DNA of 64,000 nt from Bolinopsis microptera (Eukaryota), in contig NC_087076.1 of NCBI RefSeq assembly GCF_026151205.1, positions 16,453,142 to 16,517,141 of the forward strand. The letters run 5' to 3'. The notes under the pieces were generated by a model. The model was not told the origin of the DNA. It was given only the letters and a program-made list of their open reading frames with translations, and searched no databases. Position numbers and translations under genes: made by a program. Below are positions 11,133 through 44,265 of this stretch, in pieces. The first letter of the stretch is position 1. Every line of letters begins with the position of its first letter.

Positions 11133-11363
11133 CTATCTATAGTTTAGGCCATAAAAGGATTTCATGTTAGCAGAAACAAATTCTGGTTTATGAGTGGATC
11201 ATCAATTAATTATTTATTAGGTTTCAATTATTTATTGCTGTGTAAAATTGTATTATATTCTATTATATTATGTTATCTGGCTTTCAATTTTAAATGGAAG
11301 GAAAATCTTTTTATTTAAGTTAAAAAGTTAAAATTTCTAAATATCAAACAGTTCAGGGATGCA

Positions 11364-19733: not shown

Positions 19734-21174
19734 TTAATTTATTAATAATACTAATTAAGTTGAATGATATGTCTCTTGGGCATTTTCTACCATGGCTATG
19801 TAAAGATCATATAGGCGTTTTGTTGTATGAAGATTTTATAAAAAATGTATTTGGTATTTATGATCGTTGAAGAACCTGTAATTTTCATTATTCAGCATTT
19901 TCTCTGTCTATCTTAACAAGCTCCTAATTTAATCTAGATTCAACTTTAGCCATCTTTCTATCTTTCTGGAATTATCATGACATTTCATGATTATTTTACA
20001 CTGCCATGATACTGTAACTGATATATCACTCTAAAGATAATGTATGGTTGATCTGTTAAAAGCTAACAGTGTATTGTAACTAATCACGTGACACTATTCT
20101 CAGTTAATGTATGGTTGATCTGTTAGATCAGTGTGCTCCACACTCATTCTACGACTCTATCACAAGTCCAACAACTTGCCCCTCCGACTATTGGGACAGG
20201 AAACCCTCCAAACTCTGGTTTTACTCTTTCTGGATTGTCGTATTCCTGTTTTATGCTATAAGGTAAGACAAAGCATCTGATGTGTGGGTATAGTTTATGC
20301 TACCAGGCAGACAATAATGAAACTGCAGATAGTGAAATGTAGTTTAAGTATAATTAAAAGACATTACGATATATATATGATCGATGAGGATTGGGACCCA
20401 TTTTTCCACTTATTAACCGTCGAAAGATCATCCGTTTCTTCAAAATCAGTCCTTCTTGTCAACATTAATTTCAATAATTTAAGATCTTTGATAGAATTTT
20501 CTGGAATTCAAACGGAAGTCAGGTTATCATTACAGGTTATGTATGGGTAACTCAGCAACTAACATTTACAAGAAAACATCTAATTATATCCGCGGATCTT
20601 CGACATCGCCAACCAAATCAGAAGAAAGCGAAATTGGTGTAGTTGTTGTCAGAGAGAGAAGGAGGTTGGTTGTTGACAATGTTTTTTAATATATATTACA
20701 TTATTTACAGTGTATTAATTAGGATGGACTGGTTTGATCCCGATCAAAAGCTTGACGGTCACACATTTGCGCAAATTAAAATCGTTTTACGTCGCGCGCT
20801 ATGAGTTTTGGTCTGGGTAGCACAGCAATGAAGCGGCGCGCGCACACACAATTACATGCATTTCGCGAAAATTCGTACGTACGTACGTTTGATCGATCAG
20901 CTAGATCTGTCTTAAATAGAATTTGCGCACTACTTCTATTTTAATTCTTGAACATGTTATTCAGTGTAATCAGCATTGCCAGACATTGACTAATTTTTAC
21001 CTCTGATTAAAAAAACTGATGCGATCTACAGTTTACAACCTGACAATGATTCTTCAGCTTCCTAGTGATTGTGTGGTCTTTTCTGTCTTTGGTTTTCACT
21101 GGAACCTTACTGTTGCTGGGATCTCTAAACCCTTTGCTTTTTTAGACTTGCACATATCAATAAAGGGGGGTGTC

Positions 21175-23136
21175 ACGTCCGTCTATGTCCGCTTGTCTCA
21201 TAGAATCCAAAAAGGACAGGACATAGGCGGACATAGGCGGACATAGACGGACATAGGCGGACATAGGCGGACATAGACGGACATAGGCGGACATAGGCGG
21301 ACATAGACGGACATAGACGGACATAGGCGGACATAGGCGGACATTAATGGACACCTAAATTGCTAAATAAAATGTTCAATTTTTGCTGTTAAAGGGGATC
21401 ATGTTTTTTGTCCGTTCGGTACCCTATATTTTCAAAACGGACAAAAAATAGAGCGGACAAAAATGGACAAAAACGGACAAAAATGGAAATAACATTTAGA
21501 TGCTTCCTCCTCCTACTCTTCCTCCTCCTCCCCCTGGGTCTTCCTGATCTTCCTCAGTCCTCTTCCTCCTCCCCTCCTCAGTCCTCCTCCTACTCCTCCT
21601 CCTCGTCCTCAGTCCTCCTCATCAGTCCTCAACAGTCCTCCTCCCCAGTCCTCCTCCTCCTCCTGAGTCCTCCTCCTGGGTCCTCCTCCTGGGTCCTCCT
21701 CCTCCTCTTCCTCCTCAGTCCTCCTCCTCATCCTTCTCCTCAGTCCTCCATCCTCCTCCTCAGTCCTCCCCCAGTCCCCCTCCTCCTCCTATTCAGTCCT
21801 CCTCCTCCTCCTCCTCCTTCTCAGTCCTCCTCAGTCCTCCTCCTCCTCCTCCTCCTCCTCTTCCCTCTCAGTCATCCTCCTCAGCCAATAGCCATCCTCC
21901 TCAGTCCTCCTCAGTCCTCCTCCTCAGTCCTCCTCCTCCTGGGTCCTCCTCCTCCTCTTCATCCTCCTCCTCTTCCTCCTCGGTCCTCAGTCCTCCTCCT
22001 CCTAGGTCCTCCTCCTCATCCTTCTCATCAGTCCTCCTCCTCCCCAGTCCTCTCCCAGTCCCCCTCCTTCTCCTCCTCCTATTCAGTCCTCCTCCTCCTC
22101 CTCCTCCTCAGTTCTCCTCAGTCCTCCTTCTCATTTCTCCTAAGTCCTCCTCCTGAGTCCTCCTCCTGGGTCCTCCTCCTCTTCCTTCTGAGTCCTCCTC
22201 CTCCTCCCTCTCAGTCATCCTCCTCAGTCATCCTCCCCAGCCATCCTCCCCAGCCATCCTCCTCAGCCATCCTTCTCAGTCATCGTCAGTCCTCCTCCTT
22301 CTCAGTCATCGTCAGTCCTCCTCCTCAGTCCTCCTCTTCCTCCTGGGTCCTCCTCCTCCTCCTCCTCCTGGGTCCTCCTGGGTCCTCCTGGGTCTTCCTG
22401 ATCCTCCTCAGTCCTCTTCCTCCTCCCCTCCTCAGTCCTCCTCCTACTCTTCCTCCTCGTCCTCAGTCCTCCTCATCAGTCCTCAACAGTTCTCCTCCTC
22501 CCCAGTCCTCCTCCTCCTCCTCCTCCTCAGTTCTCCCCAGTCCTCCTTCTCATTTCTCCTAAGTCCTCCTCCTGAGTCCTCCTCCTGAGTCCTCCTCCTC
22601 CTCCCTCTCAGTCATCCTCCTCAGTCATCCTCCTCAGCCATCCTCCCCAGCCATCCTCCTCAGTACTCCTCAGTCCTCCTCCTTCTCAGTCATCGTCAGT
22701 CCTCCTCCTCAGTCCTCCTCAGTCCTCCTCCTCCTCCTGGGTCCTCCTCCTCCTCCTCCTGGGTCCTCCTGGGTCTTCCTGATCCTCCCCAGTCCTCTTC
22801 CTCCTCCCCTCCTCAGTCCTCCTCCTACTCTTCCTCCTCGTCCTCAGTCCTCCTCATCAGTCCTCAACAGTCCTCCTCCTCCTCCTGGGGCCTTTTCCTG
22901 GGTCCTCCTCCTCCTCCTCCTGGGTCTTCCTGATCGTTCTCCTCCCTCTCAGTCATCCTCCTCAGTCATCCTCCTCAGTCATCCTCCTCAGCCATCCTCC
23001 TCAGCCATCCTTCTCAGCCATCCTCCTCAGTACACTTCAGTCCTCAAAATGTTTGTCCGCTAATGTCCACCAATGTCCGCTAATGTCCACCGACCACCAA
23101 TGTCCATCCAAGTCCGCCAATGTCCGTCCGGGTCCG

Positions 23137-23166
<30 letters not shown>
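21175..23166 (+). repeat. Composite repeat, copy 2, same orientation as copy 1. Parts in order: hairpin module plus (GGACATAGRCG)n; unique segment; a 1.55-kb pyrimidine minisatellite; GTCCGCTAATGTCC repeats; a 28-nt poly-C
   Basis: The first ~170 bp and the junction sequences (…ttgctaaataaaatgttcaatttttgctgtta…ggggatcatgttttt…taccctatattttca…; …ctcaaaatgtttgtccgctaatgtccacc…) are shared with 9619-11132. The 384-aa ORF at 21408-22562 is a repeat translation. Confidence 0.7.
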
Positions 23167-23167
<1 letters not shown>

Positions 23168-23219
23168 AAAGTAATAGCATACTTTCTAAACGAAGTAAGA
23201 CAAGTTTAATTTTAGCATA

Positions 23220-23595
23220 ATTTTCAGTTCATTGAGTAGAGATGACGATGACGATATCGCCCACGAGTTTTGGGAAGAAACGAAACATAGAGACGGAAAA
23301 ACTCGAATGAAACGTGTCCTCAAAACTTATCCACTGGTAACCAACAATTTAAAGATTTTGACATAACTTTATTTTTTACTTCCCGTGATTGAGGCATGAC
23401 AAAGGAACGTGTTCATTTCTGACTACAATCTAACCTATTAAATGACAACATCACTTTCAGGGATTTGTGAAATTGCCAGTTCCCTGTTTACATCCTGACT
23501 TCACGAGGGTGATGCTACCGAACTACGATATAATGGGCAAACTACAGTGCCGGAATGAACCTGAAGAGGAGGAGGACATAGCAAACGAAACATGA
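23220..23595 (+). CDS. Two terminal exons of an unidentified gene (…DDDDIAHEFWEETKHRDGKTRMKRVLKTYPL / GFVKLPVPCLHPDFTRVMLPNYDIMGKLQCRNEPEEEEDIANET*). Possibly the 3' end of the 16.4-19.7 kb gene
   Basis: Open segments with AG acceptors and a GT donor, ending at a stop at 23593-23595. Weak. Confidence 0.2.
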
Positions 23596-24007: not shown

Positions 24008-27000
24008 ATGGTAAATCTGTTCCAAGGCGATGTCATCTTTATCGATGGAACCAGCTACAATTTCAAAACAAAATCTCGGATTAAAAACACGGTCATCGAT
24101 GGCGGAGGACAAGTTTCATTTTCTTTGAACAAAAAGGTCAGAATTTCTAGTTTATTGAAATTTAAATAGCACCAGGATTCACATAAATCTATTTATTATG
24201 GCTTAGCTGTATTACAGCTGTGTAGTGTGTTAACTGGAGGTGGCCGGTGGTGAGCTAGTCGACAGCAAAACTAATGATAATAATAAAATATTGATATAAC
24301 AGGTCAGCTGTGTGCTAAGTTCGGACGTGCTAAAGTTTAAAGCCAGCTCTAGAGGGGGAACCTGCAAGAAGCTAGGTATTCCTGTCGTGTCGGAACGTTA
24401 TGTTGATGAGTCTTCTGCTTTAGGCATCAAACAGGTTTTAAAGTATATTTGAATCTTTCATGGGTTTTCCAATCGTCCTTAGGGGTCGTTCACATATTAC
24501 GTAATCAGCCGAGGGGGGGGGGGGGGGTTATATGCTTACGGTTGATTAGCTAATAGCTCACTCTTTAAAGGTTGCCTAGAAAGTCTGACGTTCTTACTAA
24601 TTTGCCTCTCCATGTTATGATCCTCTTAAATTTTAGAGTTACAGTCAATATGAGGAGTTTAGTGCACAAGAAAGGACGGATTCTGGAAAATTCCAGCTTG
24701 ATCTGGGCGAGGAACCGAGACAAGTCCTCAGTCAGGAGCGAAAGCAGGAACTCCTTTCATCCGGTGAGATCATCTCAATGAATTGGATTCGGACTGTTTC
24801 ACGTTGTCACTCAACCTTTATTTTCTTAACAATTGGTATTTTATGGAGACAATTCGCGGAAGTAGTATAATAGAACAATTCCATATTTTCAGTTACGAAA
24901 TGTGCTGTTGCTACCCTGGACACAACTGGGATGACTAGGCTAAAGCTATGTTATCTGAACAAAACTGAGCTCTGGCTCCGCAATCCGTCGTCTTATCGCG
25001 TCATTAAGCGAGGCGCTAAGACAAATTGTAAAGTTTGGGAGATGTCAGATAGGCTGGAGGCACTCTTTGTGTTCACAACCATCTCAAATAAACACTATCT
25101 GACCCAGCATCTACGCGAAAAATGGTTTGAAGAGAAACCATTTGAGGTAGAACGACTCAATCTGGAATTGAATGTTCTTCCCCATAAAATGAGAGTGTTT
25201 TCCTTGGTTAAATTCCTCTGGGATACCGCTGGGGATGCTTTACATTTACTTCGAGGTTGCCAATTTACCCTCCCGAAACTGGTTCGAATTGAAAGTATCA
25301 TATTGGATTTGATGGAAATCTTGAAAATCGAGCCACATGGTGGACAACTGATAGGAACTCTCGTTAAAGAACTTAGAGCTGCCGGTGTTCCAAATGCTTA
25401 CGCTAACGTTGTGAATTGTAGAGGGGTAAAAGATTTGGTGGTACTGTTGGACTGCATAAGGATTCTTAAGGACAGAATCCCTCTTTCTCAAGGTAAGAGT
25501 CATTCGATACTTCTAATTATAAATTGTAATCAGTCATAATACTTTTATGAATAAATTATTAAAGACGATTTGTGAATAAAGTAAGCAAAAAGTAATTTTT
25601 AAGTGAATGACTTTATGTTTATTTTTTCGCAATCTGGTAAAAGGTATTTCAGGTATCTCCACTGCTGAAGATATCTATCGAGCAGTCGGTTGCAAGATTG
25701 GACTTACTCAAATGGCAAGCAAGGAGGTTCAGTCGGCCATAGAAGCGATTAAGTAATTTAAACCTTCATTTTCCTTACTTTATCAAAAAATTTCCTGTTT
25801 TTTTGGGTTTCATCATCTTAACGAAATCACCTCACAGATCAGACAGTGGTTTCCCCGCAGTATGCTACTCACTAGAACACCCTTCCGCCGTGATGCAACA
25901 AGTCAAATACCCCTCTGCCCCCACTAAAGTTCTCTTCCACGCCACTGCTACCGCTAACGTCTGGGGCGTTTTGTCCAGGGGACTTGTTTTGCCTTGGCAG
26001 GTGGGTTGTGACAAAATGAATAATACTATTCAGCAAGTTGTGTCAGCAGCCACGTCATGTTTAAATATTGTTAGATAAGATAGTAAATCGTGCCTTTCGT
26101 TCTGATTTATTTAGCCGATAGAAAGTGAACTTTACGTTAATTTCCAATCCTGTATCATTAAATGTATGCTACATGTTTGGCAGGTTGAAAACGAACTTGG
26201 TATCATCAGAAGGGATCATGGTCGTCTGGGTCGAGGAATCTACTTATCAGAAAACCCAATGTAAGTACTCTCTACTCAATACTAGATCATACCTGGTAGA
26301 TCTTTTCGGAATTGTACTTTGATTTAAAATTATACCTAAAAGTATGATCATATCAGTCTTTAAGATTCCTCCCTATCTTACTATCTGAGATCTTTTTCAT
26401 TTGCAAAGCTACAACTTAGTAAACCCTCCTAAACTCAGCTCACTTTTCCAGGGACAGCATCAGATACTTGCACCCTACTGAACCTTCTCCCCGAGGAACG
26501 ATGTTTCTAGTGGTGTGTGAGGTGGTAACAGGACACCAGTACGCTACCTCCAAGGAACTGCTCGGTTCCGCTGCTCCTCCCTCTGGGTAGCTATTTTTCA
26601 GTGAGACTTTGCTGTGATTGAATAGAATAAATCAACGTTAGATTCAAGTTAAAAGCATGCTCGAAATTGCCGGGCGTTGTTCATCATCATTACCATCCTC
26701 ATTCCTCTGCCGAACTTACCTTCACTGATATTAAATTGTGTTTAACGCTGCAGATCATTTCAGATACGACAGCGTCGTCTCGACGACCCGTTCTGAGGAC
26801 GATTTGTCCTGTTTCGACTACAAGGAGTTCTGTATATTCGACACTACCCGTCTCAAGATAACCGGACTGATCGAGTTCGCGGTGGTGCCTGATCCGAACT
26901 TTCTGTATCCTCCCGTGCAATTACATCTTCCTTGGATTGATGAGGTGAGGGCATTTTTAAATAGACTGTTCAGTCATTCAGTGTTGGGATGTTTCGAGTT

Positions 27001-30000
27001 TAACGTAATGAATTTAAAACATACAATCATCCTAATTTCCTTGATAAAATGATTTTTATGCAATTCATATTTCTACCAACAGATCTTTTTTTTTAATATA
27101 ACTAGTTTTACTTCTAATTGACCGTTCAATTGATGCGGCAATAATTCAGGAGCCGAAACCAGAAAATGAGGATAAATATGATGATGTAACATCGCTAGAT
27201 ATTGATGACATCTTAGAAGGAACGGTGGTTAAATCTGTGGAGATCGGTCTGTTGGTTCAGGGCAGTCCAGTCCCCCTAACAACTGTCAATGTCGTGGCAA
27301 GCATTACTGATATGGTTGGTAAGTTGGCATGGGTATCCTTTGAGAAGTTGGCGCTTGTCAAGATATTACTTTGGTTGGTGGTGTGGGGAGCAGCTAGCTG
27401 ATTGGTCTATAATAACTATATGTTACACATCTAGCTTTCATATCTTTTATTCACATCTAGTCCCTTCATTCCAGGACAAGTAACAGTTCTACAATCCTAC
27501 ACTAGTTGTTGTGATGAGGAACGGGAGGCTAAGTATGTCTTCCCACTTGACGAGGGCTGTGCAGGTTGGCTAATCTAACGTTATAAGTTAATACGTGAAA
27601 TTGTGATAGCTTTTTTATTGGCTAATTCTTGATTAGCTCTATTGCAATATTATAATCATTCATAATCGCACGGCCTTCGTAAATTATAGTTCCAAAACTA
27701 TATGTTATAATTCAAAAACTATAAAGTTTAGTTCAGAAACTAAAGGAATGTATAATGTATAATGTATATCTTAAACAGTGAGCGGATTTGAGGCGTATAT
27801 AGGAGAGAAACACATAGTTGGTCAACTGAAGAAGAAAGAAGAAGCGAGGCGGGAGTATAGGCAGGCAGTAGCAGCCGGTCATGGTGCTTATCTTATGGAA
27901 CAGGAAGAGCCGGTAAGAAAATAGGGAGAAACGTTTTTCAAGGGAGATACTTTGGAATATTTACCAATACAAGTTGTTCATCAATCATCATACATATCTT
28001 CTAACAAAAATCTAATCATCATTTCAGTTTTGCCATTTGTATTGGGTATAAAGAACATGATTCAGTCATACATTCCATACATCATGTATGTATTCAATTT
28101 TCTATCAATTTCAACCTTATCTGTATCTTGGATTGATAAGGGCCCCTCTACCGCAGGACCTGTTCTCACTTTCACTGGGTAACATTCCGGCTGGCGAGGT
28201 CACCATCCACATCAAGATAATCTATGTCACCGAGTTAACTGTTCTGGACAACGATATACTCTTCACTGGTCTGTATACATCTCTGAGGTTTCGAACATGA
28301 ACTACATTGTGTGGCTTCAATATCCCTTCTAACGTGACCAATATTTCAATGATTAATTCATTATTATTTCGCGGAGTCCGCCCCATTCCCAGCGCCTCAC
28401 CCCGTCCCAAAAATGTTACTTTCATAAAAAATGATAGATGATAAATTTGTGAAGAAAAAAGGGAATAACATTTGAATGATTTCACTTTGTGTGCAGTGCC
28501 GAGTCTGTTGAGCAGTAGCAGCACAGGGTTGGATAAAATGACACAGCTGACAACTGAGACCGACCGCGTGACGTCATCAGAGACCATGTTCAACATATCA
28601 GCTAACATCACCATGCCCTTCAAGATACTGAGTATCTTCTCCTACACCCACTCTCTTAATGTCAAGGTAGAGTTTTATCTGTCAGAGCTGATCGTTTGAG
28701 CACGACGGTTCCGAGTTATAGTTATATTCTGAGTCCTGAGATCTGATATTCTTGGAAAGTTTAAAAAGCTGAAACCCCTATCTTCCTCAGATGACAGATA
28801 CCCTAGCGATGGCTAGATGGTCGGGTGTCCTAGAACCACACCAAGACTTTGAACTTCGTATCTCGGTTTCCGAAGTTAACCGGCCCCGAATGTGGGTAGA
28901 GAAATCCGGTAACACTGAGGCTGCAATGCTTACCTTCTATCCTGATATCTCTGTTAACTCCGTTGGAGGCAGAGTTAACGTCAAGATTATCATAGACTGC
29001 TCTAAGTCCATGAAACTCAAATGGAAAGGTTAGGATTAATTCCCACGTACCGTATTCCTAACCATTATGTTATGTTTGTGTCAAATATTATTAGGGTTAA
29101 CAGGGTTAACGTAGTTACACGTCAAAACAAGTGCCCCATTTTCAGGTGAGTCAGCGGGGTTATTACTACTTCTGCAAATACAGAATGAAACTTTGATTAA
29201 ATTGTAGTTATTTGATAATTAACTTACTTAACATTATACCATCCAGATACGATCCAGCAAGCGCTGTTGTTGGTGGAACGTTTGCCAGGAGAGTGCTGGT
29301 TTAATGTGTCCAGTGTTGGGGTAGGACCTGGTATTGAGTGTTTTCCAGTTTATTGTCGCGTGACCGCAACAAGCAAGAAACATGCTGTTCACTTTTTAAA
29401 GGTTTGTGCTGGTGTATCAGGGGCTTTTGTTGGCCAAGTAAATCAGCCGAGTCACCATTTATCCGTCAGACGATCGCCAAAAATGGCTTTTTGATTTTTT
29501 TTTATTGGTTAATGTCTGGGAGATTAGGAGGCGCCGTAGTATGACGTCCAAGTCACTGTTCCCAACAGAGAATCGAATTTGACGGAGAAACTTATATAAA
29601 AACTTTTCCAGCACATCCTGAAGCCTGGAGAGTACTGCACCGAACTGTGGAGCATGGTTTACAACGAGTATCTGCTGAGTAAAGATAGCCAGGATATAGT
29701 GAACATGGTGTTTGTTAGTGACGGTGTGGTGACACAACCTGATCTCTGTCTTAACCTGGCTGCTGTTCTCCCATCCAACATCCGGTTCTTTTCTGTGTTG
29801 ACCAGGTTTGTCGGGCGTAAAGATGTAGTCAGGGTTGAAGTGGAGTCTTGATATATAGCAATGTTTTTGCAATGACTTCATGAAGTCAAGTTGTAACTAA
29901 ATGAATTTAGTTACAACTTGTTAAGCAAAATTTGCCCAAAATGTTTTATTTAATATTTAATATAACGTGATATAACCCTATAATCTGATTGGTCTCCACA

Positions 30001-31565
30001 AAGATCAGATTGATATATTGCAGTCGTATTTTAATAATTTTATGATAGTTAGGTAATTGAAACGGGGATTGCCGTTAAACATGATACCCCCACAGAGAGG
30101 ACGGAAACAAACATTTCTTACAAGCATTAGCAAAACAAGGCAGCGGCTCCTTCCTCTTCCTAAACTCCAAGGAAAAGGGGAAATGGATGAACACGGTTTG
30201 TTCGATAATGACTATGTTCGTTTGTTCGTTCGTTTGCTGATGTTTTATCTCTTTTAATGTTCATGTTAGACGTAAATAGTTTGTCGGAAATAATAGTCAC
30301 TGTCACCAACTTGTAGCCAACATTGTGCTAATTTAATCGTTCGTCCAATATTTGCTACAAGTTGGTCACTAACGTATAATCATCAAATATATATATTTCA
30401 CCCTCATGATATTTGCAGAAATCACGTCCTTCAACCAAGTAAACTTTTTTTTCTAACAGTCGAGTCACGATTGATAATTTTAAAAGTAACTTGTACAGAT
30501 ACCCTAGTTTCACTTCTCCAGGTGGGGATTCTGTATGAAAAGTGCAAAGAACCAGCGTTGGACGAAGTTCAGTTAAAGTGGAATATGTACAACAGCGGAG
30601 ACACTGTTAATCAGGCTCCCCTGCTCATATCATCTCTCTTCAACAAACACAGACAGGTTTGTATCTTGATCTTAGAAAAGCCAAATGTCCGCTCTATCCT
30701 CCCAGATCCTGACTTAACTGTTTCAAACACCCTCACACTCACAGCTTCTGAAAACTTCAGATAGTGTACGGATACGTGCCCAACTGCAGATCAGCGTCTC
30801 TTCTCGCTCATCTTGGAGATCAGGTGTTGGACACGCTAGTCAGTGTGGAGGAACTTAATGTTAAGCAAGGTTTGAGGGAATCTCTTATCAATTTTTAGCT
30901 GAAAAGTTAATTTCCTACTCGTTCAGGTCGATGGGGAAGATTTTGGGATTTTGGATTGCCTGTTAATGTTCTTATTTCAAAACCGACTCGTAATATAATA
31001 CCAATCATGACGCGGCGTCATCAATTTTAAATTGATCCAATTATCAAATTAACCAGTTAGCTAGAACTTCAAACTACCCAATGATCAGGGAGTGTATTAC
31101 ACAAGCTTACTGCTCGAGCAATGATAGATGATTATGTAAATGGGGTCATGAGCGAGGACCAGAGACTACACGAGGTAAATCTCTATTTTATATTTCACTA
31201 ATAATACACTACAAGAGATCTTGTTAGGATATCAAAACGAAAGACATAACGTGCAGAACTCACTAAACTTGTACAACAATATCTGCAATTTATAATCCAA
31301 AAATTTGAAGTGGACTACGAAATTTTCACATTAAACTTAATTTTTACTTAAACTACTTCAGAGCCAGCAGCGCAAGAGAAAAGATGAAATAATATCTTTA
31401 TCCCTGGAACACTCTGTAATATCGCCCTTCACCAGCTTTGTAGCAGTTGAGGAGCGAGGTGAGGGTGAGGTGGTTCAGAAAACTGTAGATGTTGAGACTC
31501 TCCTGTCAGAGATCAGAGTGGACTGCATTCCTTACGTTGGGTACTCGGACGTTTCAAAGTTAGAG
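24008..31565 (+). CDS. PARP4: PARP4 (vault poly-ADP-ribose polymerase) homologue, multi-exon; span includes introns. Domains: BRCT (24008 to about 24460), PARP regulatory and catalytic (about 24930-26900), VIT (about 27130-28300), vWA (about 28790-29850), and a post-vWA region up to 31565
   Basis: Strong segment-wise matches to human PARP4. Window segments with their human counterparts in parentheses: GGQVSFSLNKK (GGKFSFSLNPQ); LFHATATANVWGVLSRGLVLP (LLHGSRSQNFVGILCRGLLLP); GRGIYLSENP (GSGIYFSDSL); YDSVVSTTRSEDD…KEFCIFD (YDSVHGVSQT…DEFVVYK); KYVFPLDE…GFEAYIGEKHIVGQLKKKEEARREYRQAVAAGHGAYLM (KYIFPLDD…GFEAFINGKHIVGEIKEKEEAQQEYLEAVTQGHGAYLM); RMWVEKSGNTEAAMLTFYPD (RMWVEKHPEKESEACMLVFQPD); IIDCSKSMK (ICLDCSSSMEG); FVSDGVVTQPDL (LVSDGHLQDESL); FTSFVAVEERGEGE (FTSFVAVEKRDENE). 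Start ATG at 24008. Confidence 0.8.
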
Positions 31566-31858
31566 GTTGGAAGAGTCGCATTTTTTTAATTTTTAATAAC
31601 TTGCCATGTATGATGTACAATGTACATTGTGCAATGTACATCTTTAAGATGATTTTTGGCAGTGTGTAGCCTCTTATATGTGTACATTGTATATCTTACC
31701 TGGTTCTATTGACGGAAGCATGTTAAATTGTGTGATTTTCTCATCGTTTTGGTACTCAAAGTTGGAAAATTTTTGACCCACTATTTAAATTTTATCAGTA
31801 AAACTTGTTATTGATGGTGACTCGACTACAGTAATGAGTAAATTGATTTTTTAAATCA

Positions 31859-33851
31859 CAGGTAAGGGAACAGATACGTTGCCCTGATCAGTATGATGAA
31901 ATTATAAGATTGATTGAAAAAAAAACCTCTACGTACAATGTTCCTGACTCACCCGATTCGGATTCTGGTGATTCGAAGACGGAATCCTCGTCTGACGAAG
32001 ACGAAACCGATTACTCAACGGTGGTTCTTGATCTAGGATCTCACAGGATAAAGGGAGGGTTTGCTGGAGATGATGCACCCCGAGCTGTGTTCAAGTAAGC
32101 ACATATAGATAAGAACTACACTTTTGCATTTCATTTCTTTACTTATTTCTTATAGATATCAATATTTCATGCGTATTAACCTAGAAAAGCTCAAAAGCTG
32201 TTAAAAATTATAAAATTTTGTAAAATTCCCCAGATCAGTCATAGCAATACCTGCAGCTCGTGGAGTTATGTTGGGTATGGGCGGCAAAGATTACTTCGTC
32301 GGCGATGAGGCCGTTTGCAAAGCTGGAGTAATGGGAAGACTAGATAATGCATTCGTAGACGAACCATCCAATGTTGACATTTCGGCTCTAAGGACGGAAA
32401 GTCCATTACCCTCCAGCACTGATTCTGAAGGTGAAGAAGAGGGGTCCCGAGTTGGAGTCCCACTAGTTATTGACATGGGTAGTTACATGGTCAAAGCTGG
32501 CTTTGTTGGAGATGATGAGCCTTTTGCTGATTTTCCTCCCCTCGTAGGAAGACCAAGGCATCGGGGGGTTATGGTTGGTATGGGACAGAAAGATTCGTAC
32601 ATTGGTAGTGAAGCGATGTCAAAGCGGGGCATACTAACGCTTACTAACCCTCTTGCTCCACCAAGAAGAACAGCTCAGTCTGTAGATGGTAGTCGACCAC
32701 AACAAGCGCCAACCTATGCACAAGCGCCAGTGTATACACAATGTAGTTCAACTCCTCCTGCCCCACCGGGGGCCCCGTCACCACCTCGTATTTTAGCACA
32801 GAGAGCACTGAGGCGGAGTCTTAGTGGCTGTTCTGCGCCAACTCCACCGGGTGCGCCACCTCCACCATGTGCAGCACCTCCGCCAAGTGCGCCACCTCCG
32901 CCAGGTGCGCCACCTCCGCCAAGTGCGCCACCTCCACCATGTGCGCCATTACGAGCACCGTCACCACACGCACGGCCACAACAAAGAGCAGCTACAATGT
33001 TATTCGGTTCAGCTCGAGGGCCAACTTCAGCTCTTGCCCCAAAGATGGAAATGTCTAATAGACCTGGATCAATGTTTGGAAGTTTAAGTTTTGGTGCTAC
33101 CCAGTCACTTTCCCGACCACTATATACAATAGGTGCACTACCATCACCAGATGCACGGCCATCATCAGACGGAATGTGTTCTTCTTCACGACCAATCACT
33201 GCCGCTGCACCGTTAGTCAAGAGTAAAGAATCTTCCCTTTTCTCTCAGCCTAAGTTTAGAAAGTCCCCAGATTCATGGCCAACACCGTCTACATCAAACA
33301 TCTGTGGGAGTTCTAATTTTGGTGGCTCAGAAGCACCTCCACAATTTGGAGGTGTGTATGTCTCCCAGGCACCACCACAACCTGGATCAATGTCTGGAAG
33401 TTTAAGTTTTTGTGACGCACCATTTTCAAGTGAGGATGAAGAAGTGAAGTTAATGCAGAATTATCCTCCAGGAAAGGGGTTAGGGAAGGGAGGTTCGGCA
33501 CTATCCCGACCACATGTCTCACAGGCACCACCACCACCACCCCAGGCACCATCACCACCTACATCATTCATGTGTACTATAGGGAGTGATCCAGTTGATG
33601 GTCCACAGAAAAGGTTTGCAAGGTTCAACACCAACAACAACACTTTAGCTAAAAAATCCAGTCCAGCACTGGCACAGGATCTACAATCACGAAGACAGGT
33701 GATCAAGAATGAAAAAGTATCTGATGATGTTACTTCCGATACTGATGAATGGGATAGCTCCAGCAGCAGTTATTCTGGAGCTAATATCGGATACAGTAAT
33801 GACAGAAAATGTTTTACTGCGGAGGTAAATTTTCAATTTTCTACGCCATAG
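31859..33851 (+). CDS. Two or more exons in frame with the last recognised PARP4 exon (frame compatibility between the 31565 donor and the 31859 acceptor was not checked). They encode two tandem actin-N-terminus-like modules (about actin residues 8-73), a poly-proline FH1-like tract ([11 protein letters not shown] x7) and a Ser/Gly-rich tail. Most likely the C-terminal linker of PARP4, but possibly a separate gene
   Basis: Acceptor at 31858 (cacag|GTAAGG) and donor at 32095 (TTCAAG|gtaagc). Module 1: [25 protein letters not shown]…[27 protein letters not shown]. Module 2: [60 protein letters not shown]. Compare actin: [61 protein letters not shown]. Confidence 0.5.
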
Positions 33852-34289
33852 TAAGAAGTGACTGTACAATGTAGTTCTCCTTGTGTCCAAGTCCAACGAA
33901 CGAATAAGTGAATAACAGTGAATAACTTGAGTTACAAAACGCACAACTGATTTGAGGGCTAAACGTATATTCTTATCTTTTTATTTGAAACATAAAATAG
34001 CATATGCAGAATAAACATAAATGACATTGAAAATATCCCCGCAGACCCCATTAACGTCTGCCCGGAGCATAAATTCGGGAGGGTTGGGCAGTGCCCCACG
34101 CTTCCAATTTATGGCAGGATCTGCGCTCTCTCCTCCACCAATGTCAGCACCCGTCGAAGAGTACTTGGCTCAGGACGAGGTAAGACTTTATTCTGAAAAA
34201 ATCTTATCGGAGAAAGTAGGTCAATCAGTTATTTTGGCATTAGAAGAGTAGTGTGATGCTATCCCATGAGAGTTCGACTTCCGTGGCTA

Positions 34290-35610
34290 CGTTAGTTAAA
34301 GGTGCACGTACAGTTCGTCACGTACGGAAGTTCGACACGCACTAAAGTTCGACAAGGCTGTCGAAGACACGCACTAAAGTTCGACTCTGTCGAACTTTGG
34401 TGCGCTACTTGGACTATAGTTCGACACGTACTGAAGTTCGACAAGGCTGTCGAATCTCAGTTCGATACCTGAACACTAGTCCTTCCACTTTTTCTGTTGA
34501 GGAGGTGCGGGCTGTCGCATCATCTTCTGGTTAATCTTACAATCCGTCAGATCTTGTTCCTTCTTCAAGACATCTATGAAGCGCAGAATAGTGGGATTAG
34601 TGCACTCGAAGGACTTCTCATCGCGCTTTCTGTTCAGGTAATACCGGTATCCCTCGTGGATGACGTTACGGGAGCCAGAACTGCGACCAGGAATGAAGGT
34701 GATGCATGGTAAAAACATGATGTTCGATACTAATGTTCATGTTGTACCTTATATACACATTAATGTACCGTCACTATTGTGACGGTACATTAGAACCAGA
34801 CAGAAACAAAGTGTGAAGGGCCTGATCGGAACCCCTCGGTTTAAGTTCCTTGTTTAACACTGCCGTACAGCAAGGACATTCACCGAGTTCTCCAATCTAC
34901 CATTTCCAACCTATCATCTCAGCATACGAGCTTGTTATCGCAATCAAATGCCGATGTGATCATATAGCGTGCAGCCACAGTCGGTGACCGACAACTGGGA
35001 ACCACTCATTCCGGGCTCCCACAAGTATAACATCACATGGCCCAATCAGTTACGTATCATTTGTATGTGATCCATATTATAACCATCCTAACAGCCGGAC
35101 AAACAAGAACCTGGATAGGGTTCATATGGCAGTTTAGTAAGTAGCTGTGTATTATGAAGTATATTAAGAAGTGTTTGAGCTCTCGGCATGTGTATATTAT
35201 GTTGAGTTTGAACTATCATTATCTTTTAAAAATCTTTGTCTTAATCTTAATTAATGCTGAAATACATACAGCACAGCTGTGAAATCAGTGGAAATCTGAA
35301 TGTTTTAAGTATCTCCAGAGGTTCTTAGTTGTCGGGGATATGTCATGATTGGTTCCTAGTTGTCGGAGCTGATTGGATTTCCCAAGCTTGCATGTATATG
35401 AGTAGCACCAGTGCGTTCCATAAGAACACGAACATCGATATTCGGCCTTCATTAATACCACATGATCTGTTCATGACGTGAACTGTTCGATTACAAGCAG
35501 TAAATGGAGAGGGAAAAATATTTGTCGAACTTTAGTGCACCAAAGTTCGACATGTGTGATTTTTGGCGAACTTTATTTGTCGAACTTCGGTGAGTGCTGA
35601 ACCACAGTAC
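34290..35610 (-). mobile_element. Candidate non-autonomous DNA transposon. Both ends carry clusters of short palindromes built on the motif GTCGAACTTTRGTGC / GTTCGACA, enclosing a minus-strand ORF (34476-34718) with a FLYWCH/WRKY-like motif (HEGYRYYLNRKRDEKSFEC)
   Basis: At least 8 GTTCGACA/TGTCGAAC copies at 34310-34460 and at least 4 at 35515-35600, in both orientations. The ORF is only weakly FLYWCH-like: W is replaced by F and no trailing His is present. Lies inside a probable intron. Confidence 0.3.
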
Positions 35611-37290
35611 GTGAATCTTAGTTATACATGGTGAAACCTACGTAGACTGGGTTACCTTTGTGGCAATATATTTCATTTTTTGCATGATCGTTGTCAAACT
35701 ACCCTTGTTAAACAATTTTCTCTATTTCATATTCTTTCATCATCCCTTGATGTTGTTACAATGGTGATAACCCATTTTCACAGGATGTCTCTATGACGCA
35801 GGATGTCATGTGTGACTACGATCCCACAATCGAAGATCAAGATGAGGTAATCCATTATTTCATAATCAATATTCTAGCTAGTTTTTTAGCAACAAATTAT
35901 GATTAATTACTTATTATGTAACGCTCTATTCGACATTCGGGCGATCAAGTTTGGGATCATCTACATGTATCAAAATTATATTTTAGCCCTACACTAATAG
36001 CATACGTTTGTTTAATTCGCTCTCTTATCTGCTTTCTTATCTCGCCTTGTTTAACGGCGAAATTTTGTGCCTTACACCTTGTAGCTTAGCCTTACATCAT
36101 AGCAGCTGTGAACGACGCGGAGATTGACAGTATTATGTTTAAAATTAAAGCTGAGGATTGGATGGCAAAAGTTATGAATCAATTCTGTTGTGAAGCACCA
36201 GTTGACATGACTTCTGTACAGTGCAAACATTTTTTGCTTAAAAGGTCATTAAGTTTAACGGGTAAAGTAAAGTTTGCAGCGTTTCTGTCAGAATCGATTC
36301 ATTTGGTTCACTTTTAAAATGACAAGTTAAAGAAGATGAAAAACGTACTGAGCCCAATCAAGAATCAGTTGATTGATAATCAAAAATTGGTTATCAGAGC
36401 TCAGGAATCAATAATTGACTGCAAAGAAAAACAGTCGCAGGCAGTGCAGACCGTCGTTAAATTTAAAGACACGGTAAAGTCAGTTTATATCGTACAGCGA
36501 TGCAGTTCCCCCCCCCCCCCCCCCCCCTCCCCACGAGACTTTGAAGGAAGTCGTCAAGTCTGTGGTGTGCAAGCAGAAGACCGGATCAAGAACTTGAACA
36601 GAACTGTCGGAGACATATATGAGGAGATTGGACTGAAAGTTAGAAAGTAGCAATGGAGCTCAGTAGAGTTGGCAAGTTGAAGGAGAAGACTTCTCGGCCA
36701 GTCAAGGCTACTCTTCCAGTTCCAGTACAGCCTATCAGATACTCAATCAAGCCCGAAAGCTGCGACATTCAGAGAAATTTAGTTCAGTCTTCATTAGTCC
36801 AGACCACTCATTGGAGGATCGAGTTGAGCGTAGACTTCTTGTTCACAAATTATACTGAAGACGATCACGAGTGAGATGAGTGTGGCTTTTACAAGAGTAA
36901 ACTTGTTCAATACATGTCTTGCAATTATATTAGGGACGATAGTGTTCGTAAGAGGATGGGGACTTGTCCTGTTGTGATAAACAATTTTATTTGTTGAGTT
37001 ATTCTTTTTGGCTGTTGGAGCATATAAAACTTTAAGTTTTCGCAATATTTGTCAGATGAGGTTTAAATTCCGTCGTTAAGTGCTGATCTACACTGTGTGC
37101 CTTTTTTATTAAGGGTGCATTGCCCTTGCAAGGGGTTAATAATATTTGTATTATATATTTGTTAAGATTAAAATTGGTCATTAGAACCACCCGGGCATCG
37201 TCTCGGTTTAAAATCAAAATATATATCTTGAGATGCTTATATTGTCACCAGGTAATAAGTATTACAAAAAGCGTATTTACCTAAATTTAT

Positions 37291-39990
<2,700 letters not shown>

Positions 39991-42740
39991 ATGATTTGTG
40001 TCATGAGAGGGAACAATACATCCGTTTTAGATGACGAATGTTAATGATGACTAAACTGTTGTATTATGCGTATGCGTACCGTCTTATTTTGTATGTTGTC
40101 ACTATATTTACTATGGTGGAATTTTTTTGATTTATATTTTTATTCGTGCCGTATTACATTACTTTTAAACAATTGAAGACTTCAAGTTTTGTAACACCTC
40201 AGTGGCTTCGATTCATCGACCGCAAACGCCGCAATCTACAATACCAAGTAGCTAGAGCGTTTATCATGACGAATCGTTGTCATTTCTTATATAACCTTCA
40301 TGATTTGTGATTGTTTTTATTTTTAATTTATATTGAATTATTCAGTTATACTTTCATTTCTAATAATGTGGAATCTTATTGATAAAGAAGATGGTTAGTT
40401 TTAAATGTTGAGACATTTTTGATGCTTTTAAAATATGATACATGACAAAGAAATTCGTTTTTAGTTTACAATTTTTGTTTAAATAACGGTAGATGAGTAT
40501 TACAGATTTTGAGGTTTATATTTGAATTTTATAGAGTTAATGTGCTTACATTCTACAGACATGCAGACGTGATCGGTTGTGGCTTATTAAATAATGAGCC
40601 CGTCTATTACTATTTCAAACTGCAGCGTACAGTGTAACTGTACAGCTTATGATTTGCTTATCTGTTTAGTGTTTATAGAAATAATATTTTCCGTGTAAAT
40701 GGAGTCTCATGTTCAATGTTAATATTTTAGCGGAACTTGGGAAATTGGCAGTGATTTAGATTCCATGTACAGTGTACACCCATGCCCCATACTTATTGAT
40801 ACTTATTGGTTAATTTGGTACCTCAATCCGATAACTCTGAGATATCATGATACCAAATATGTCTGTTCATAGAAACTTTTGTCTCTTCTGCCCACTCATT
40901 TTGAAGGGCTCTTTAAAGTATATTATGAAATTTGATACTTTTCACAGTACGGTGCTATCTCGAAAGGTATTCGAGCTTTACCGTAGATTGTGAATTCTTT
41001 GGAGTGCCAATCATTTATCAAAATTATCTGAGCTAAAATTCACACGGTCTATTTCGAAGATTTCCCGAGTTTCAAAGAACTTAAACTATCAAAAAATATT
41101 GTAGAGTTGCATATCGTTAAATTTTTTCTGTGAATTGATTGTTTTTGACATCATTTGTTTAATTTTTGTAAAGAAGTTTTGACCCAAGAATTAGAGACCA
41201 AAATTCCAAAGTATCCTAACATTGAACTATCAAAAAAAAGTTCTCCGATCCTTCGGTAACGAACTCAATTAATAAATCACAGTAAATCACACCTGACGAT
41301 ATTCCATGTTCCTCTTGATGAAAAAGATACTGTAAGAAATATTGAGGCACAGCATATCGAGGAATCAAGCCAGGATTTCTGCATTTTATGAAATCAGTTC
41401 AAAAGAGTAGTGACTAGTGAGCACACTCAACATTGTACAGTCCATTTGCATACATATTTCACGGCAGGCCACGCCCCACCACAGCACGTGCTATTGCGCA
41501 TGTTCCATGTGCGCGGCGCCATTTATGTCAAGGTGGCTGTTAAAAAAGTTGGGTTACAAATGTTTTAATGATTTCGCGCGCGCTCACTATGAGGTACAAG
41601 CTGAGTACACTGTGACCGGTGTAGGTAAAGTCTCCCTGTGGCACTTCAAGGAAACATGACTAACAGCTGATTGGATGCCAATTTCCACCCATTCCATATA
41701 AACGCCTCCCACCCTGTGGTTACAAGATTATTTGCCCTATTGACGGGACATCTTCACAATACTAAGTATACGAATAACAAGAAGAGCACCACGTTTAGCA
41801 ACTAGGAACTGAGGCGTACATCGGGCCTCTACACAGCACTAACAAGCGACTAATTGTTCATTATCACATGTTTGTTACTGAATTCACGTGCTGTGTGACA
41901 CGCTTCCTCCTTCTCTCAGTTTCTCAGTCTATTCTGGAGGAATCTTGAGATTATTGTGAAGTGGGACAAAGTGAGCTGTATAGTTCGTGTATAGTCTTAT
42001 TGACGAGGTGAAATTATTGATTATTATAATTTATACCGACCTGTACTTATCACACCCTCGACAAACCTCAGAGGGGGGTGATACGCGAGGTGCTATCACC
42101 GGATGTGTTATAGTTTGGCAAGATCCGCTGCATCACTACGAGTACCCCTTATCACCGGTCAGAAGCCATGATTGCAACTTCACATTTGCTGGAGACGATC
42201 ACTTCAGTACCCGTCGTGTGACGTGTCAAGTTCTTTAATCTAATCGAATTAAGGGTTGCACTACACAAAACCTAATAATTGACGTTAATGGAAGTGAAAT
42301 AGAAACCCTGGTCTCCACTGACACTTTGCCTGTGAAAAGGATTCCTGTAGGCTGGGCATTGACAGGCCAGAATGGGGGAGCCGAGACACGGGGGAGATAA
42401 CTGGAAGCCAACTAAAACACAGTAACTGGGCAACACCGCATACATTGTGTCCCTTAGTAATAGAGATAACCCACCTAAATTACACAGCATGATAGTTACT
42501 GCCATACATTGTTAACGATTCTTCGAATAATGTATCCTTAAAACTTGGGTACTTTAATGATTTTAAGATTCTTGAGGATTTCAATGTTTAGTGATGATCA
42601 TAATATGGTATTTACGTTGAACAATAAAATCTTAAATAAATGTGAATAATGTGCGTTAATAATCGTATCAATTACCTAAGGACTGTCCTATTAAAAACAC
42701 TTTACTACATGCTGTAATGGTATTATTACGGCAGTGATAC

Positions 42741-44265
42741 ATGACATTTTACTACCGCCTTGTTATTTCACATATGTTTGTTTTACTTGTTCTCCTGCTC
42801 CTGTCCACCCACCATGTACACACCTACAGCATACTCCTGACAGCACCTTTCGGTGGAAGTCACCTGGCTCTGATGTCACATCTCGCTCAAATACTCTCAG
42901 ATAACGGCCATGGTGCTGTGATCGCAACTCCAGAGCGTGACGCTGTGATCAAGACAGCCCATACTCTCCTCACGCCCAGTGATGGAGGTTTTACGAAGAA
43001 GGAAAGGTTAGTCATGTCGGCCGCCTGCATGAGGGAGATTCTTAATAAGGACACTACATAGACCACGGTAGTAGATATTGGAGCAGATTGCAGACGTGAC
43101 GCTTGGGGGAATATTCTCGAACTTTCGTCCGCCTTCTTTTTGGGGGAGATGTTTGTCGAGCAGGTACATCGGCTGAAAATTGATATTATTATAGCAGATG
43201 ATGCCAACATAGGTGATGTGGCTAAGTTGGCAGGTGACCTGAACATACCCCTCATATGTTTCAGTCCCTGGAGTAACCACTACCGGGCTAAAGAGGCAGC
43301 AAACAACTCCCCACTGCTAGCCACGGAACCCTCCCATATGTGGCCCCATTTACTAGACCAAGGCTTCTCAGTTACTGGCTATCTCCATTCTCCAAGCTTA
43401 CATCAACTATTTCAAGTTTCGAAAGTATGCTGAGCTCCGGGAAGGCAGCACAGCCGATTTAGTTGACGTGTTCCTGGTGAATGATGTGACATATTTCTCA
43501 TACCAGTACGTGACACTACCTAACTTGTATTTAGTTGGAGGGATCTACTTATCCCCACAATCCGATCCTCTTGATATGGAGTACACAAACTACACTAAGT
43601 CTCGGTATGTGGTGTATGTCTCGTTTGGTTCCTATGCTATTCCTGACTGGTTACCTTGGTTTCCAACTCTTTTGGAAGCGGTGGAATTATCTAAAGCTAG
43701 TTTGATCATAGCCAAAATCAACCGGCATCCTAGCGATCATGTTCCTAGAATATCTGATAAGATTATATTTAAGACGTGGGTTCCTCAATGTGCACTGCTG
43801 GCAAGTGGCAGGGTGAAATTGTTCATCTCACACTGCGGACAGAACAGTCGGATGGAAGCCGCTTACTACGGTGTTCCCATGTTATGTATACCACTTTTTG
43901 GGGACCAACTTCTCAACTCGTACCTCATGCAATGGAATAATTTTGGGGTGTTGTTGAAAAAGGAGGGGATAGAAATGCAGAAAGTTCGAGACTTGATAAA
44001 CGATATGCTGGTTAATGGTACAGTTTTCAGGGCCAATATTAATCGAGCCAGGTATATGTTTATGGATGATCCTGTGTCAGGGCCAGATAATTTTTTGTTT
44101 CTTGTCAACACCCTTGGGAAGAATGGAAAAGGTGCACTGAAAATATCTCATAATTCCAAAGAATCTGGAGATAACGCAGAGATTATGGGAATTATATTAC
44201 TCAGCTCGATCGTGGGAGCAACTATACTTGCTATTTCTCTGTACATTTCTAGATATAGGCGTTAA
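42741..44265 (+). CDS. UDP-glucuronosyl/glycosyltransferase (UGT) gene. Exon 1 is 42741-43006 (signal peptide plus N-terminal acceptor-binding domain). Exon 2 starts at 43094 and the coding sequence continues to the stop at 44265. There is an apparent +1 frame change near 43355-43400
   Basis: UGT signature WVPQCALLASGRVKLFISHCGQNSRMEAAYYGVPMLCIPLFGDQLLN. N-terminal FGGSHLALMSHLAQILSDNGHGAVIATPE. C-terminal TM segment IMGIILLSSIVGATILAISLYISRYRR*. The exon1-exon2 junction was verified as phase 2: AG|gttagt … gcag|A. Confidence 0.75.

Follow-up and report, generated by a model that had tools for sequence, protein, structure and literature searches.

The stretch of DNA analysed here (the window) comprises 64,000 nucleotides of contig NC_087076.1 from Bolinopsis microptera, a lobate ctenophore. 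The middle of the window is occupied by a PARP4 orthologue (Table 1), and two consecutive exons of this gene (exons A and B) encode two tandem fragments of the actin N-terminus (modules 1 and 2), followed by a proline repeat. This segment is almost certainly a translated and selectively kept part of Bolinopsis PARP4, located in the linker that follows its vWA domain.

Actin fragments in the linker of Bolinopsis PARP4

The gene corresponds to isoform X2 of LOC134814927 in RefSeq (P0121, 2253 residues, "uncharacterized protein"), which was matched by a protein search with a rough gene model. Pfam searches with single upstream exons gave no match, as the pieces are too short, and the full RefSeq protein was needed. 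A scan of this protein finds BRCT (weak), PARP, VIT, VIT_2, VWA_3 (weak) and two Actin matches. The PARP domain (PF00644, residues 392-505) has an E value of 3.6e-11 and a score of 43.4 bits, compared to the cut-off of 26.7, and the residues of the H-Y-E triad are all present (in FHAT, GIYLS and YKEFCIFD, as judged by eye only). The matches at residues 3-82 are weak, both for BRCT_2 (E=2e-4, 22 bits, under the cut-off of 27.3) and for BRCT (E=0.004). The VIT domain (E=3e-31) is followed by the vWA domain, and both are located after the catalytic domain. The VWA_3 match covers profile positions 2-152 of 155, with a score of just 17.5 bits, which is under the cut-off. With the 606-residue VIT-vWA stretch as the query, named PARP4 proteins are found at E values of 1e-100 to 1e-116.

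The RefSeq gene models are computational. The exon borders were set from the splice sites, the reading phase and the RefSeq protein. An earlier note on this DNA had placed the two exons at 31859-32095 and 32246-33838/33851; the exons are real, but their borders had to be corrected to those in Table 1. The reading phase is continuous with that of the upstream PARP4 exon ending at 31565, as the same note had stated. Exons A and B join in frame to give 608 residues. The 527-residue open reading frame (ORF) at 32268-33851 is merely the ATG-to-stop reading of exon B.

The similarity of the two modules to the actin N-terminus, first recognized in the earlier note, is far beyond chance in both BLASTP and Pfam searches. 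Residues 48-111 of the 608 (module 1) align with residues 2-65 of human β-actin (ACTB), with 35 of 64 residues being identical (55%, E=8e-19), and residues 155-218 (module 2) align with actin residues 8-71, with 47 of 64 being identical (73%, E=1e-26). The Actin profile (PF00022) recognizes the same segment in two stretches, with an E value of 2e-22 and a score of 79.7 bits (cut-off 27), and the match is limited to profile positions ~6-65 of 410 (~2-68 when all the Actin matches are counted). Each module spans the acidic N-terminus, the first β-hairpin and all of subdomain 2, including the DNase-I-binding loop (D-loop), and gives way to unrelated sequence after actin residue ~71. A run of Ser, Asp and Glu residues is located 5' of both Bolinopsis modules, and an acidic run precedes the module in all PARP4 proteins examined, as at the N-terminus of actin itself.

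The earlier note had assigned two landmarks of actin to the modules. The D-loop is indeed present, with 15 of its 16 residues in module 2 being the same as in actin. However, the DNGSG of the actin phosphate loop is replaced by DLGSH (module 1) and DMGSY (module 2). A complete actin fold has ~375 residues and all the nucleotide-binding motifs, and the modules fall short of this. The module cannot be an actin, because ~300 residues of the fold are absent and phosphate-loop residues N12 and G15 are replaced. Structure predictions with AlphaFold2 gave no confident fold, either for both modules (mean predicted local distance difference test score, pLDDT, 28.2 with a 3-row alignment) or for module 2 with actin rows (mean pLDDT 40.9 with 14 rows). 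As these alignments are shallow, the low pLDDT is weak evidence against an independent fold.

Two related ctenophore assemblies in ENA (L001 and L003) match the window in a collinear manner, one exon after another, between 20.1 and 38.6 kb. The orthologues of exon A (9428-9651 in L001 and 9382-9605 in L003) have the same donor phase, and the intron inside module 1 is found at the same position in both assemblies. Module 2 together with NPLAPPRR has 80% protein identity to L001/L003, despite saturated synonymous sites (proportion of synonymous differences, pS, of 0.80). The ratio of nonsynonymous to synonymous substitution rates (dN/dS, Nei-Gojobori) is 0.11 for module 2 (L001-L003 pair) and 0.19-0.24 for module 1. 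In comparison, exon B outside the modules has a dN/dS of 0.45-0.84 (0.84 for L001-L003), and its identity between Bolinopsis and L001/L003 is 30-35%. The modules are islands of purifying selection within a nearly free-evolving linker, the long and otherwise fast-evolving region between the vWA domain and the C-terminal domain. That the modules and the proline tract belong to this linker, as the earlier note had suggested, is seen in the RefSeq model, the two ctenophore assemblies and five other animal genera.

The proline repeats had been counted as seven copies of the FH1 type. The number is about right, with 6.4 copies found by Tandem Repeats Finder (TRF). The likeness to FH1 is a resemblance only, because there is no FH2 domain and the units have just four prolines in a row; a Pfam scan of the whole RefSeq protein finds no FH2 or any formin family. 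The units of L001 have five consecutive prolines, and L001 and L003 have longer GAAPP(P/R)AP arrays at the same place. Nematostella (X1 isoform) and Saccostrea likewise have a proline-rich tract 3' of the module.

The C-terminal domain of Bolinopsis PARP4 resembles the MVP-interaction domain of other PARP4 proteins at the level of a motif only, in a comparison with hhalign (Table 1). The MVP-interaction domain (PF26156) is not in the precomputed domain list of P0121, and BLASTP of the Bolinopsis C-terminus against P0044, which bears PF26156, gives an E value of 2.9. A profile search of the PDB with the Bolinopsis C-terminal domain finds no match, and phmmer against the PDB with the C-terminal ORF of L001 finds chance matches only.

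Table 1. Positions of the PARP4 gene and of features within it, in the numbering of the window
Feature	Position	Strand	Basis or remarks
Bolinopsis microptera PARP4 orthologue	24008..39991	+	30 coding exons; each P0121 residue placed exactly in the window
Exon A: acidic Ser/Asp-rich spacer (31946-32011) and first half of module 1 (actin ~2-31)	31862..32094	+	Donor AA/GTAAGC, phase 2
Actin module 1 (actin ~2-72)	32009..32363 (coding 32009-32094 + 32234-32363)	+	BLASTP, Pfam; D-loop at 32247-32291
Intron, 139 bp, splitting module 1 inside the codon of actin residue ~32	32095..32233	+	GT..AG borders; joined translation equals the RefSeq protein
Exon B, the largest exon (530 codons): remainder of module 1, module 2, proline repeats, low-complexity linker	32234..33824	+	Donor GAG/GTAAAT
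Acidic 12-residue spacer before module 2	32412..32447	+	
Actin module 2 (actin 8-71, 32460-32654) and conserved tail APPRR (32655-32669)	32460..32669	+	D-loop core 17-mer at 32544-32594
Tandem 18-bp repeat x 6.4 encoding (C/S/G)APPPP	32834..32948	+	TRF score 153, 86% matches
Second short proline run, 13 residues	33522..33560	+	
DEWDSSS motif near the end of exon B	33744..33770	+	Kept in all three ctenophore orthologues amid unalignable linker
Micro-exon, 63 bp, phase 0/0, encoding DVSMTQDVMCDYDPTIEDQDE with the Ras/Rap switch-I heptamer YDPTIED (in CDYDPTIEDQD)	35784..35846	+	
R-SNARE (synaptobrevin)-like segment (37333-37473), then SSSQERFRCISS (Rab switch-II-like)	37333..37500	+	
Core motif of the C-terminal domain (NSLLSNGLNSLGPSVSKEVISYVKLVCCSMRL), resembling the PARP4 MVP-interaction domain	37993..38088	+	hhalign against PARP4 C-termini: P=6.6e-4, probability 27%, 33 columns

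Linker pieces across the PARP4 family

A homologue search with the 608-residue segment is dominated by true actins, including some POTE-actin chimeras, and only three of the proteins (P0001, P0053 and P0044) are informative. A HMMER scan with the VIT-vWA stretch gave 150 representatives of the PARP4 family, and their linkers were screened by BLASTP with a panel of 40 proteins. Downstream of the vWA domain, the actin fragment is found in seven of the 150 representatives, and only the N-terminal piece of actin is present. Other pieces at this position are ubiquitin (15 representatives), 14-3-3 (11), a substrate-binding fragment of HSP70 (five), VAMP (three), calmodulin (three), a Ran or Rab5-like GTPase (two) and a MAP2K-like kinase (two). 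Carriers of such pieces include Nematostella, Hydra, Magallana, Mytilus, Macrostomum, Branchiostoma, lungfish, dictyostelids, Pelomyxa and Bodo. The VAMP2-like segment of lungfish PARP4 is 67% identical over residues 39-78. Several carriers are single uninterrupted ORFs on metagenome contigs or are derived from transcriptomes, and are therefore not gene-model fusions, although some of the integrated domains may be annotation fusions. The calmodulin of a Rotaria PARP4 (P0146) is 90% identical to calmodulin itself and was given no weight, as a possible fusion of gene models. The actin piece is one case of a widespread habit of the PARP4 family, which carries pieces of ubiquitous host proteins at the position after the vWA domain.

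The same N-terminal actin fragment is present in PARP4 of Nematostella, Hydra, oysters (Magallana and Saccostrea), the mussel Mytilus and the flatworm Macrostomum, and annotated PARP4 proteins with a matching architecture are found in five animal genera besides Bolinopsis. The orthologues with the same insert that the earlier note had proposed to look for thus exist in ctenophores, cnidarians, molluscs and a flatworm. Its statement that no such insert is known in PARP4 does not stand, since Perina et al. (2014; PMC4245714) and the public models of Nematostella, Hydra, Magallana and Mytilus already have it. The module is constitutive in Nematostella and Hydra, being present in every full-length isoform listed.

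An alignment with ACTB was made of ten modules borne by PARP4 proteins, which represent eight species and four phyla. The similarity to actin ends at residue ~60-71. Residues D11, G13, K18, P38, G42, V43, M44, G46, M47, G48, K50, D51, G55 and E57 are invariant. None of the ten PARP4 modules has N12 or G15 of the phosphate loop, whereas D11, G13 and K18 are kept. PARP4 of Nematostella, Hydra, Magallana, Mytilus and Macrostomum has the D-loop 17-mer (actin residues 35-51) unchanged, and one substitution each is present in module 2 of Bolinopsis and in Saccostrea. The losses that the modules share (N12, G15, and S33 to P/T) could reflect convergent relaxation, and the actin piece may have been captured once, in ancient times, or repeatedly.

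Further copies of the actin piece are seen in the ctenophore assemblies. In L001, a second tandem PARP4 copy of the actin type (15500-21527) is located ~2 kb after the first, and there is no such duplicate downstream in the Bolinopsis window. A third locus (L002:266-11953) contains three tandem ORFs of 1067, 774 and 650 residues, each combining a coiled-coil-like N-terminus, one actin N-module and the PARP4 MVP-interaction domain, with no PARP, VIT or vWA domain. These ORFs may encode independent proteins that are targeted to vaults, or they may be alternative terminal exons. One of the ORFs carries a WH2-like motif, RQDLLQSIQSGLMLKS. In the paralogue L2a of this locus, the actin module is joined by the WH2-like motif and APPPPP; WH2 is the top Pfam match, but it is not significant (E=0.22).

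A second lineage of ctenophore PARP4 (P0122, P0123, P0179 and P0231, from Mnemiopsis and other assemblies) is ~35-49% identical in the VIT-vWA region. These proteins have no actin N-modules and instead contain two ubiquitin repeats that end in LRLRGG and are followed by Pro, together with a sequence resembling the actin C-terminus, (I/V)VHRKVF, and a diverged HSP70 substrate-binding fragment. P0044 also bears the C-terminus of actin, as GGGPMIVHRKCF. The distance from the module to IVHRKCF in this protein is 363 residues, compared to 361 in actin. The possibility that P0044 keeps an entire, degenerate actin was set aside, as a partial second module intervenes.

Other pieces of the gene and its surroundings

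Additional short pieces of other proteins are found in the same gene (Table 1). Short matches were counted only if they have at least eight residues or are significant in BLAST. The octamer EYDPTIED occurs in the C-terminal ORFs twice in L001 and once in L003, and shuffled sequences are expected to give 0.01 exact 8-mers. In exon B, the sequence GKGLGKGG (33471-33494) is the same as histone H4 residues 7-14. Longer histone matches occur in the linkers of P0258 (GLGKGGAKR at residue 1123, equivalent to H4 residues 10-18) and of Sinanodonta PARP4 (LATKAARKSA at residue 1887 of P0242, equivalent to H3 residues 21-30), and are beyond the shuffle expectation of ~0.02 or less for both the 9-mer and the 10-mer. 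Isolated exact 7-mers (KAVKYQS of syntaxin, RTKQTAR of H3 and YGMDSRP of MAP2K1) are at the level of chance, as shuffles give ~6.8 of these in the 261-protein set, and were rejected.

The R-SNARE-like segment on its own matches the Pfam Synaptobrevin family with an E value of 8e-4, under the gathering score. A profile of the segments from Bolinopsis, L001 and oyster finds synaptobrevin-2 in the PDB (E=3e-7), as well as other R-SNAREs. Positions 49-63 of the same profile match switch II of Rab8A and Rab1A (QERFR motif), although the match is weak (E=0.04). The counterpart of SSSQERFRCISS in L001 is GQERFRSITTA, which is close to switch II of Rab8 and Rab1. The zero-layer Arg residue of R-SNAREs is replaced by Lys in Bolinopsis, and no transmembrane anchor follows. 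The segment, as judged from its sequence, is a SNARE-like fragment and no true SNARE. In an oyster (Saccostrea) PARP4-like protein, the synaptobrevin fragment is fused straight to the actin fragment.

Upstream of the start codon at 24008, short ORF pieces at 20100-23574 have 75-92% protein identity to L001 and L003, and may represent either additional PARP4 exons at the 5' end or a gene located upstream. Two low-complexity repeat blocks rich in Pro, Ser and Leu (9700-10750 and 21400-23200) are open in several frames and have GC skews of -0.32 and -0.45, respectively, the second being located just 5' of the PARP4 start. A long (GA/TC)n microsatellite (38950-39300) is present in the PARP4 intron between exons 38466-38576 and 39713-39799.

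Among the other genes of the window, a VPS8 homologue is encoded by an uninterrupted ORF of 1463 codons (11319-15707, forward strand; Beta-prop_VPS8 E=2e-65, TPR_Vps8 E=5e-43). It is apparently intronless, whereas the neighbouring genes are intron-rich. The neighbours include a UDP-glycosyltransferase (42700-44300, forward), a KH-domain protein (49280-50810, reverse) and an RNase H2 subunit B-like protein (56880-57740, forward). ORFs of the long interspersed nuclear element (LINE) type, with endonuclease/exonuclease/phosphatase and reverse transcriptase domains, are located at 953-4093 (forward; 1047 codons, apparently intact), 5015-6637 (reverse) and 54320-55435 (forward). A tandem repeat of ~37 residues (TTQTLYRDQGEVNYTNPLQGPGRSELHKPFTGTREKS) is found on the reverse strand at 59820-60880, in an open frame.

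Interpretation and relation to known systems

The constraint on the D-loop suggests that something that also reads real actin imposes it, in which case the module would be a surface mimic. Our tentative preference, held at somewhat below an even chance, is for a non-polymerising mimic that would bring actin-recognising proteins, possibly including pathogen effectors, to PARP4 and the vault. The module would display the pointed-face surface of actin on a flexible tether, and proteins that recognize this surface would treat the mimic like actin and bind to it. Candidate binders are enzymes and toxins that act on the D-loop (such as the ACD toxins of Vibrio and Aeromonas), D-loop proteases, oxidases of Met44 and Met47, and DNase-I-like proteins. 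The ACD toxin cross-links K50 of actin to E270 (PMC3448709). Binding would place the partners beside the PARP catalytic domain, and in the lumen of the vault when PARP4 is vault-bound, where they might be ADP-ribosylated, sequestered or sensed. In the vault, the C-terminus of PARP4 is anchored at the waist, and the disordered regions of the protein are located in the lumen (Lodwick et al. 2025, PMC12280208).

Several observations weigh against the mimic. The mechanism has been derived wholly from sequences, and the sequence comparisons did not establish that the Bolinopsis C-terminus binds MVP. The structural residues of the hairpin (G13, G20, F21, G23, P27 and F31) are conserved alongside the D-loop, pointing to a unit that folds by itself or together with a partner and not to a plain linear bait. 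The classical toxin sites of actin, R177 and T148, fall outside the fragment. Moreover, the mRNAs of actin, ubiquitin and HSP70 are abundant and the likeliest sources of capture, and the repertoire alone is therefore no proof of a link to pathogens. The architecture, shared by ctenophores and molluscs, is ancient and has remained stable, and actin domains are reported in unicellular relatives (Perina et al. 2014); this suits a housekeeping adaptor at least as well as an element of an arms race. The proline tracts next to the module and the WH2-like motif in the L002 paralogue speak for the endogenous actin machinery.

Such a cytoskeletal adaptor, a refined form of the tether to actin or profilin proposed in the earlier note, is a close and serious rival, though on the unlikely side. 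The D-loop of the module would dock in the hydrophobic cleft on the barbed face of monomeric (G-) or filamentous (F-) actin, like the neighbouring subunit of a filament, and the proline tract would recruit profilin-actin or SH3/EVH1 proteins, so that PARP4 or the vault is tethered to actin assembly or regulates it. In F-actin, V43, M44 and M47 of the D-loop contact the next subunit, and these hydrophobic residues are invariant in the modules. In Bolinopsis, L001/L003, the Nematostella X1 isoform and Saccostrea, the module is immediately followed by a proline-rich repeat, paralogue L2a joins the module to the WH2-like motif and APPPPP, and Perina et al. (2014; PMC4245714) inferred a cytoskeletal link from the actin and actin-binding domains that PARP4-like proteins carry. 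However, a lone D-loop contact is weak, the Bolinopsis units have four prolines and no FH2 or EVH1-type context, and the linker of vault-bound PARP4 would be in the vault lumen, beyond the reach of filaments. The adaptor also leaves unexplained the ubiquitin, 14-3-3, HSP70, VAMP, calmodulin and GTPase pieces at the same site. A quite improbable alternative is that the linker acts in cis, as a substrate-like or regulatory region. By copying heavily modified proteins it would serve as an acceptor or pseudo-substrate for PARP4, kinases or other modifiers, and would tune PARP4 activity or vault loading instead of recruiting outside partners. KS motifs of histone tails are targets of PARP1/HPF1 and PARP4 modifies itself, which would suit the exact histone-tail peptides in the linkers of Sinanodonta and P0258 and the GKGLGKGG of exon B. 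On the other hand, a module of 70 residues with a conserved hairpin and D-loop far exceeds the needs of an acceptor site, residues 1-71 of actin contain no known ADP-ribosylation site, and folded integrated domains such as ubiquitin and 14-3-3 are unsuited to the role of a pseudo-substrate.

That the segment has no function is hardly credible. It would then be a pseudogene fragment or an exonised retrocopy of actin, junk within an intron, or a small gene of its own that gene prediction had wrongly merged with PARP4. Actin mRNA is abundant and a frequent source of retrocopies, LINE elements are present in the window, and the RefSeq model is computational. However, a frame of 545 codons is open, the splice phases are consistent, the same exons and intron occur in three species, and dN/dS is 0.11-0.24 in the modules with saturated synonymous sites. 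Moreover, the PARP4 proteins of cnidarians, molluscs and one flatworm contain the same fragment, and in Nematostella and Hydra every listed full-length isoform includes it. A pseudogene, intronic junk and a separate gene are excluded by the continuous frame together with purifying selection, which disposes of both the pseudogene fragment and the novel gene abutting PARP4 that had been considered in the earlier note. The evidence from conservation, selection and distribution already contradicts a lack of function.

A broader proposal extends the surface mimic from actin to the whole family, and we regard it as unlikely, though worth stating. The PARP4 linker across eukaryotes would be an array of integrated mimics of the host proteins and target sites that pathogens attack, or exploit as cofactors, most frequently. 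Its pieces would be the D-loop face of actin, ubiquitin, 14-3-3, calmodulin, the substrate-binding domain of HSP70 and the SNARE motif of VAMP, as well as Ras switch I, Rab switch II and histone tails. Inside the vault, the mimics would be displayed on the tether between the shell and the PARP catalytic module. An effector that binds, cleaves or modifies one of them might be trapped or ADP-ribosylated, or might free PARP4 from the vault as an alarm.

To our knowledge, PARP4 and the vault have had no agreed function for decades, and the only prior evolutionary clue for PARP4 that we know of is a fast-evolving disordered exon in mammals. In early-branching animals the exon at that position is legible, with selected copies of defined actin surfaces, and relatives hold ubiquitin, 14-3-3, HSP70 and VAMP. 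A vague "specificity interface" of PARP4 thereby becomes a set of concrete, testable bait sequences, and the modules may give a handle on what PARP4 recognizes. If the array of mimics is true, it would give vaults and PARP4 a concrete role in innate immunity and would account for the positive selection that mammals show in the same exon. Even for a cytoskeletal adaptor, an exact 17-residue D-loop kept in a non-actin over several hundred million years (our own estimate) is a natural experiment on the readers of the D-loop.

The closest known proteins are the PARP4-like (clade 5) proteins of Perina et al. (2014, DNA Repair 23:4; PMC4245714), with appended domains related to actin, 14-3-3 and ubiquitin. 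Actin or actin-binding domains were described there for Salpingoeca, Capsaspora and Acanthamoeba, and 14-3-3 for amoebae, lancelet and sea urchin (PMC4245714). The family, the position after VIT-vWA and the kind of appended domain are the same, and the 14-3-3 forms (Branchiostoma, dictyostelids) and ubiquitin forms were recovered here too. In that paper these domains take up one or two sentences and a domain cartoon, and the actin form is not named for ctenophores, cnidarians, molluscs or flatworms. The restriction to actin ~1-71, the invariant D-loop next to a decayed phosphate loop, the ctenophore duplication and the purifying selection go beyond it. No paper was found in the literature that analyses the PARP4 actin fragment itself or proposes mimicry. 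Actin-type domains on PARP4-like proteins were already known, if barely characterised, and what is new is the detailed anatomy, the selection and the duplication in ctenophores.

In mammals, PARP4's largest exon (exon 30), which is disordered, is under recurrent positive selection and has been suggested as an interface between host and pathogen (Daugherty et al. 2014, PLoS Genet; PMC4038475). Exon B is likewise the largest exon, mostly disordered and fast-diverging, and is located between the vWA domain and the putative MVP-binding C-terminus; the likeness is one of position. No similarity of exon 30 to actin, SNARE or ubiquitin has been reported, and none was found among the mammalian representatives screened with the small panel. 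Plant NLR proteins with integrated decoys, and the "tripwire" regions of NLRP1 and CARD8, are cases in which host proteins carry copies of proteins or sites targeted by pathogens. The PARP4 linkers resemble the NLR decoys, by analogy only, in their diverse, lineage-specific repertoire and in the fidelity of the mimic. Judged by this analogy, the actin module has the makings of a decoy, being a host-derived piece of a pathogen-targeted protein that is kept similar, with its identical D-loop containing the K50 targeted by ACD. In comparison with NLR decoys, however, the PARP4 insertions are much older and more stable, and no effector or signalling output is known for the PARP4 linkers.

The proline-rich regions of formin FH1, Ena/VASP and WASP share short tandem XPPPP(P) units with PARP4, and the WH2-like motif of paralogue L2a (LLxxIxxGxxLK) extends this likeness, whereas FH2, EVH1/EVH2 and VCA domains are absent from Bolinopsis PARP4. 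The POTE-actin chimeras of primates, like PARP4, join a coding sequence of actin in frame to an unrelated protein. However, POTE carries a complete and recent actin retrogene, while PARP4 carries the first ~70 residues only, in a form that is ancient and selected.

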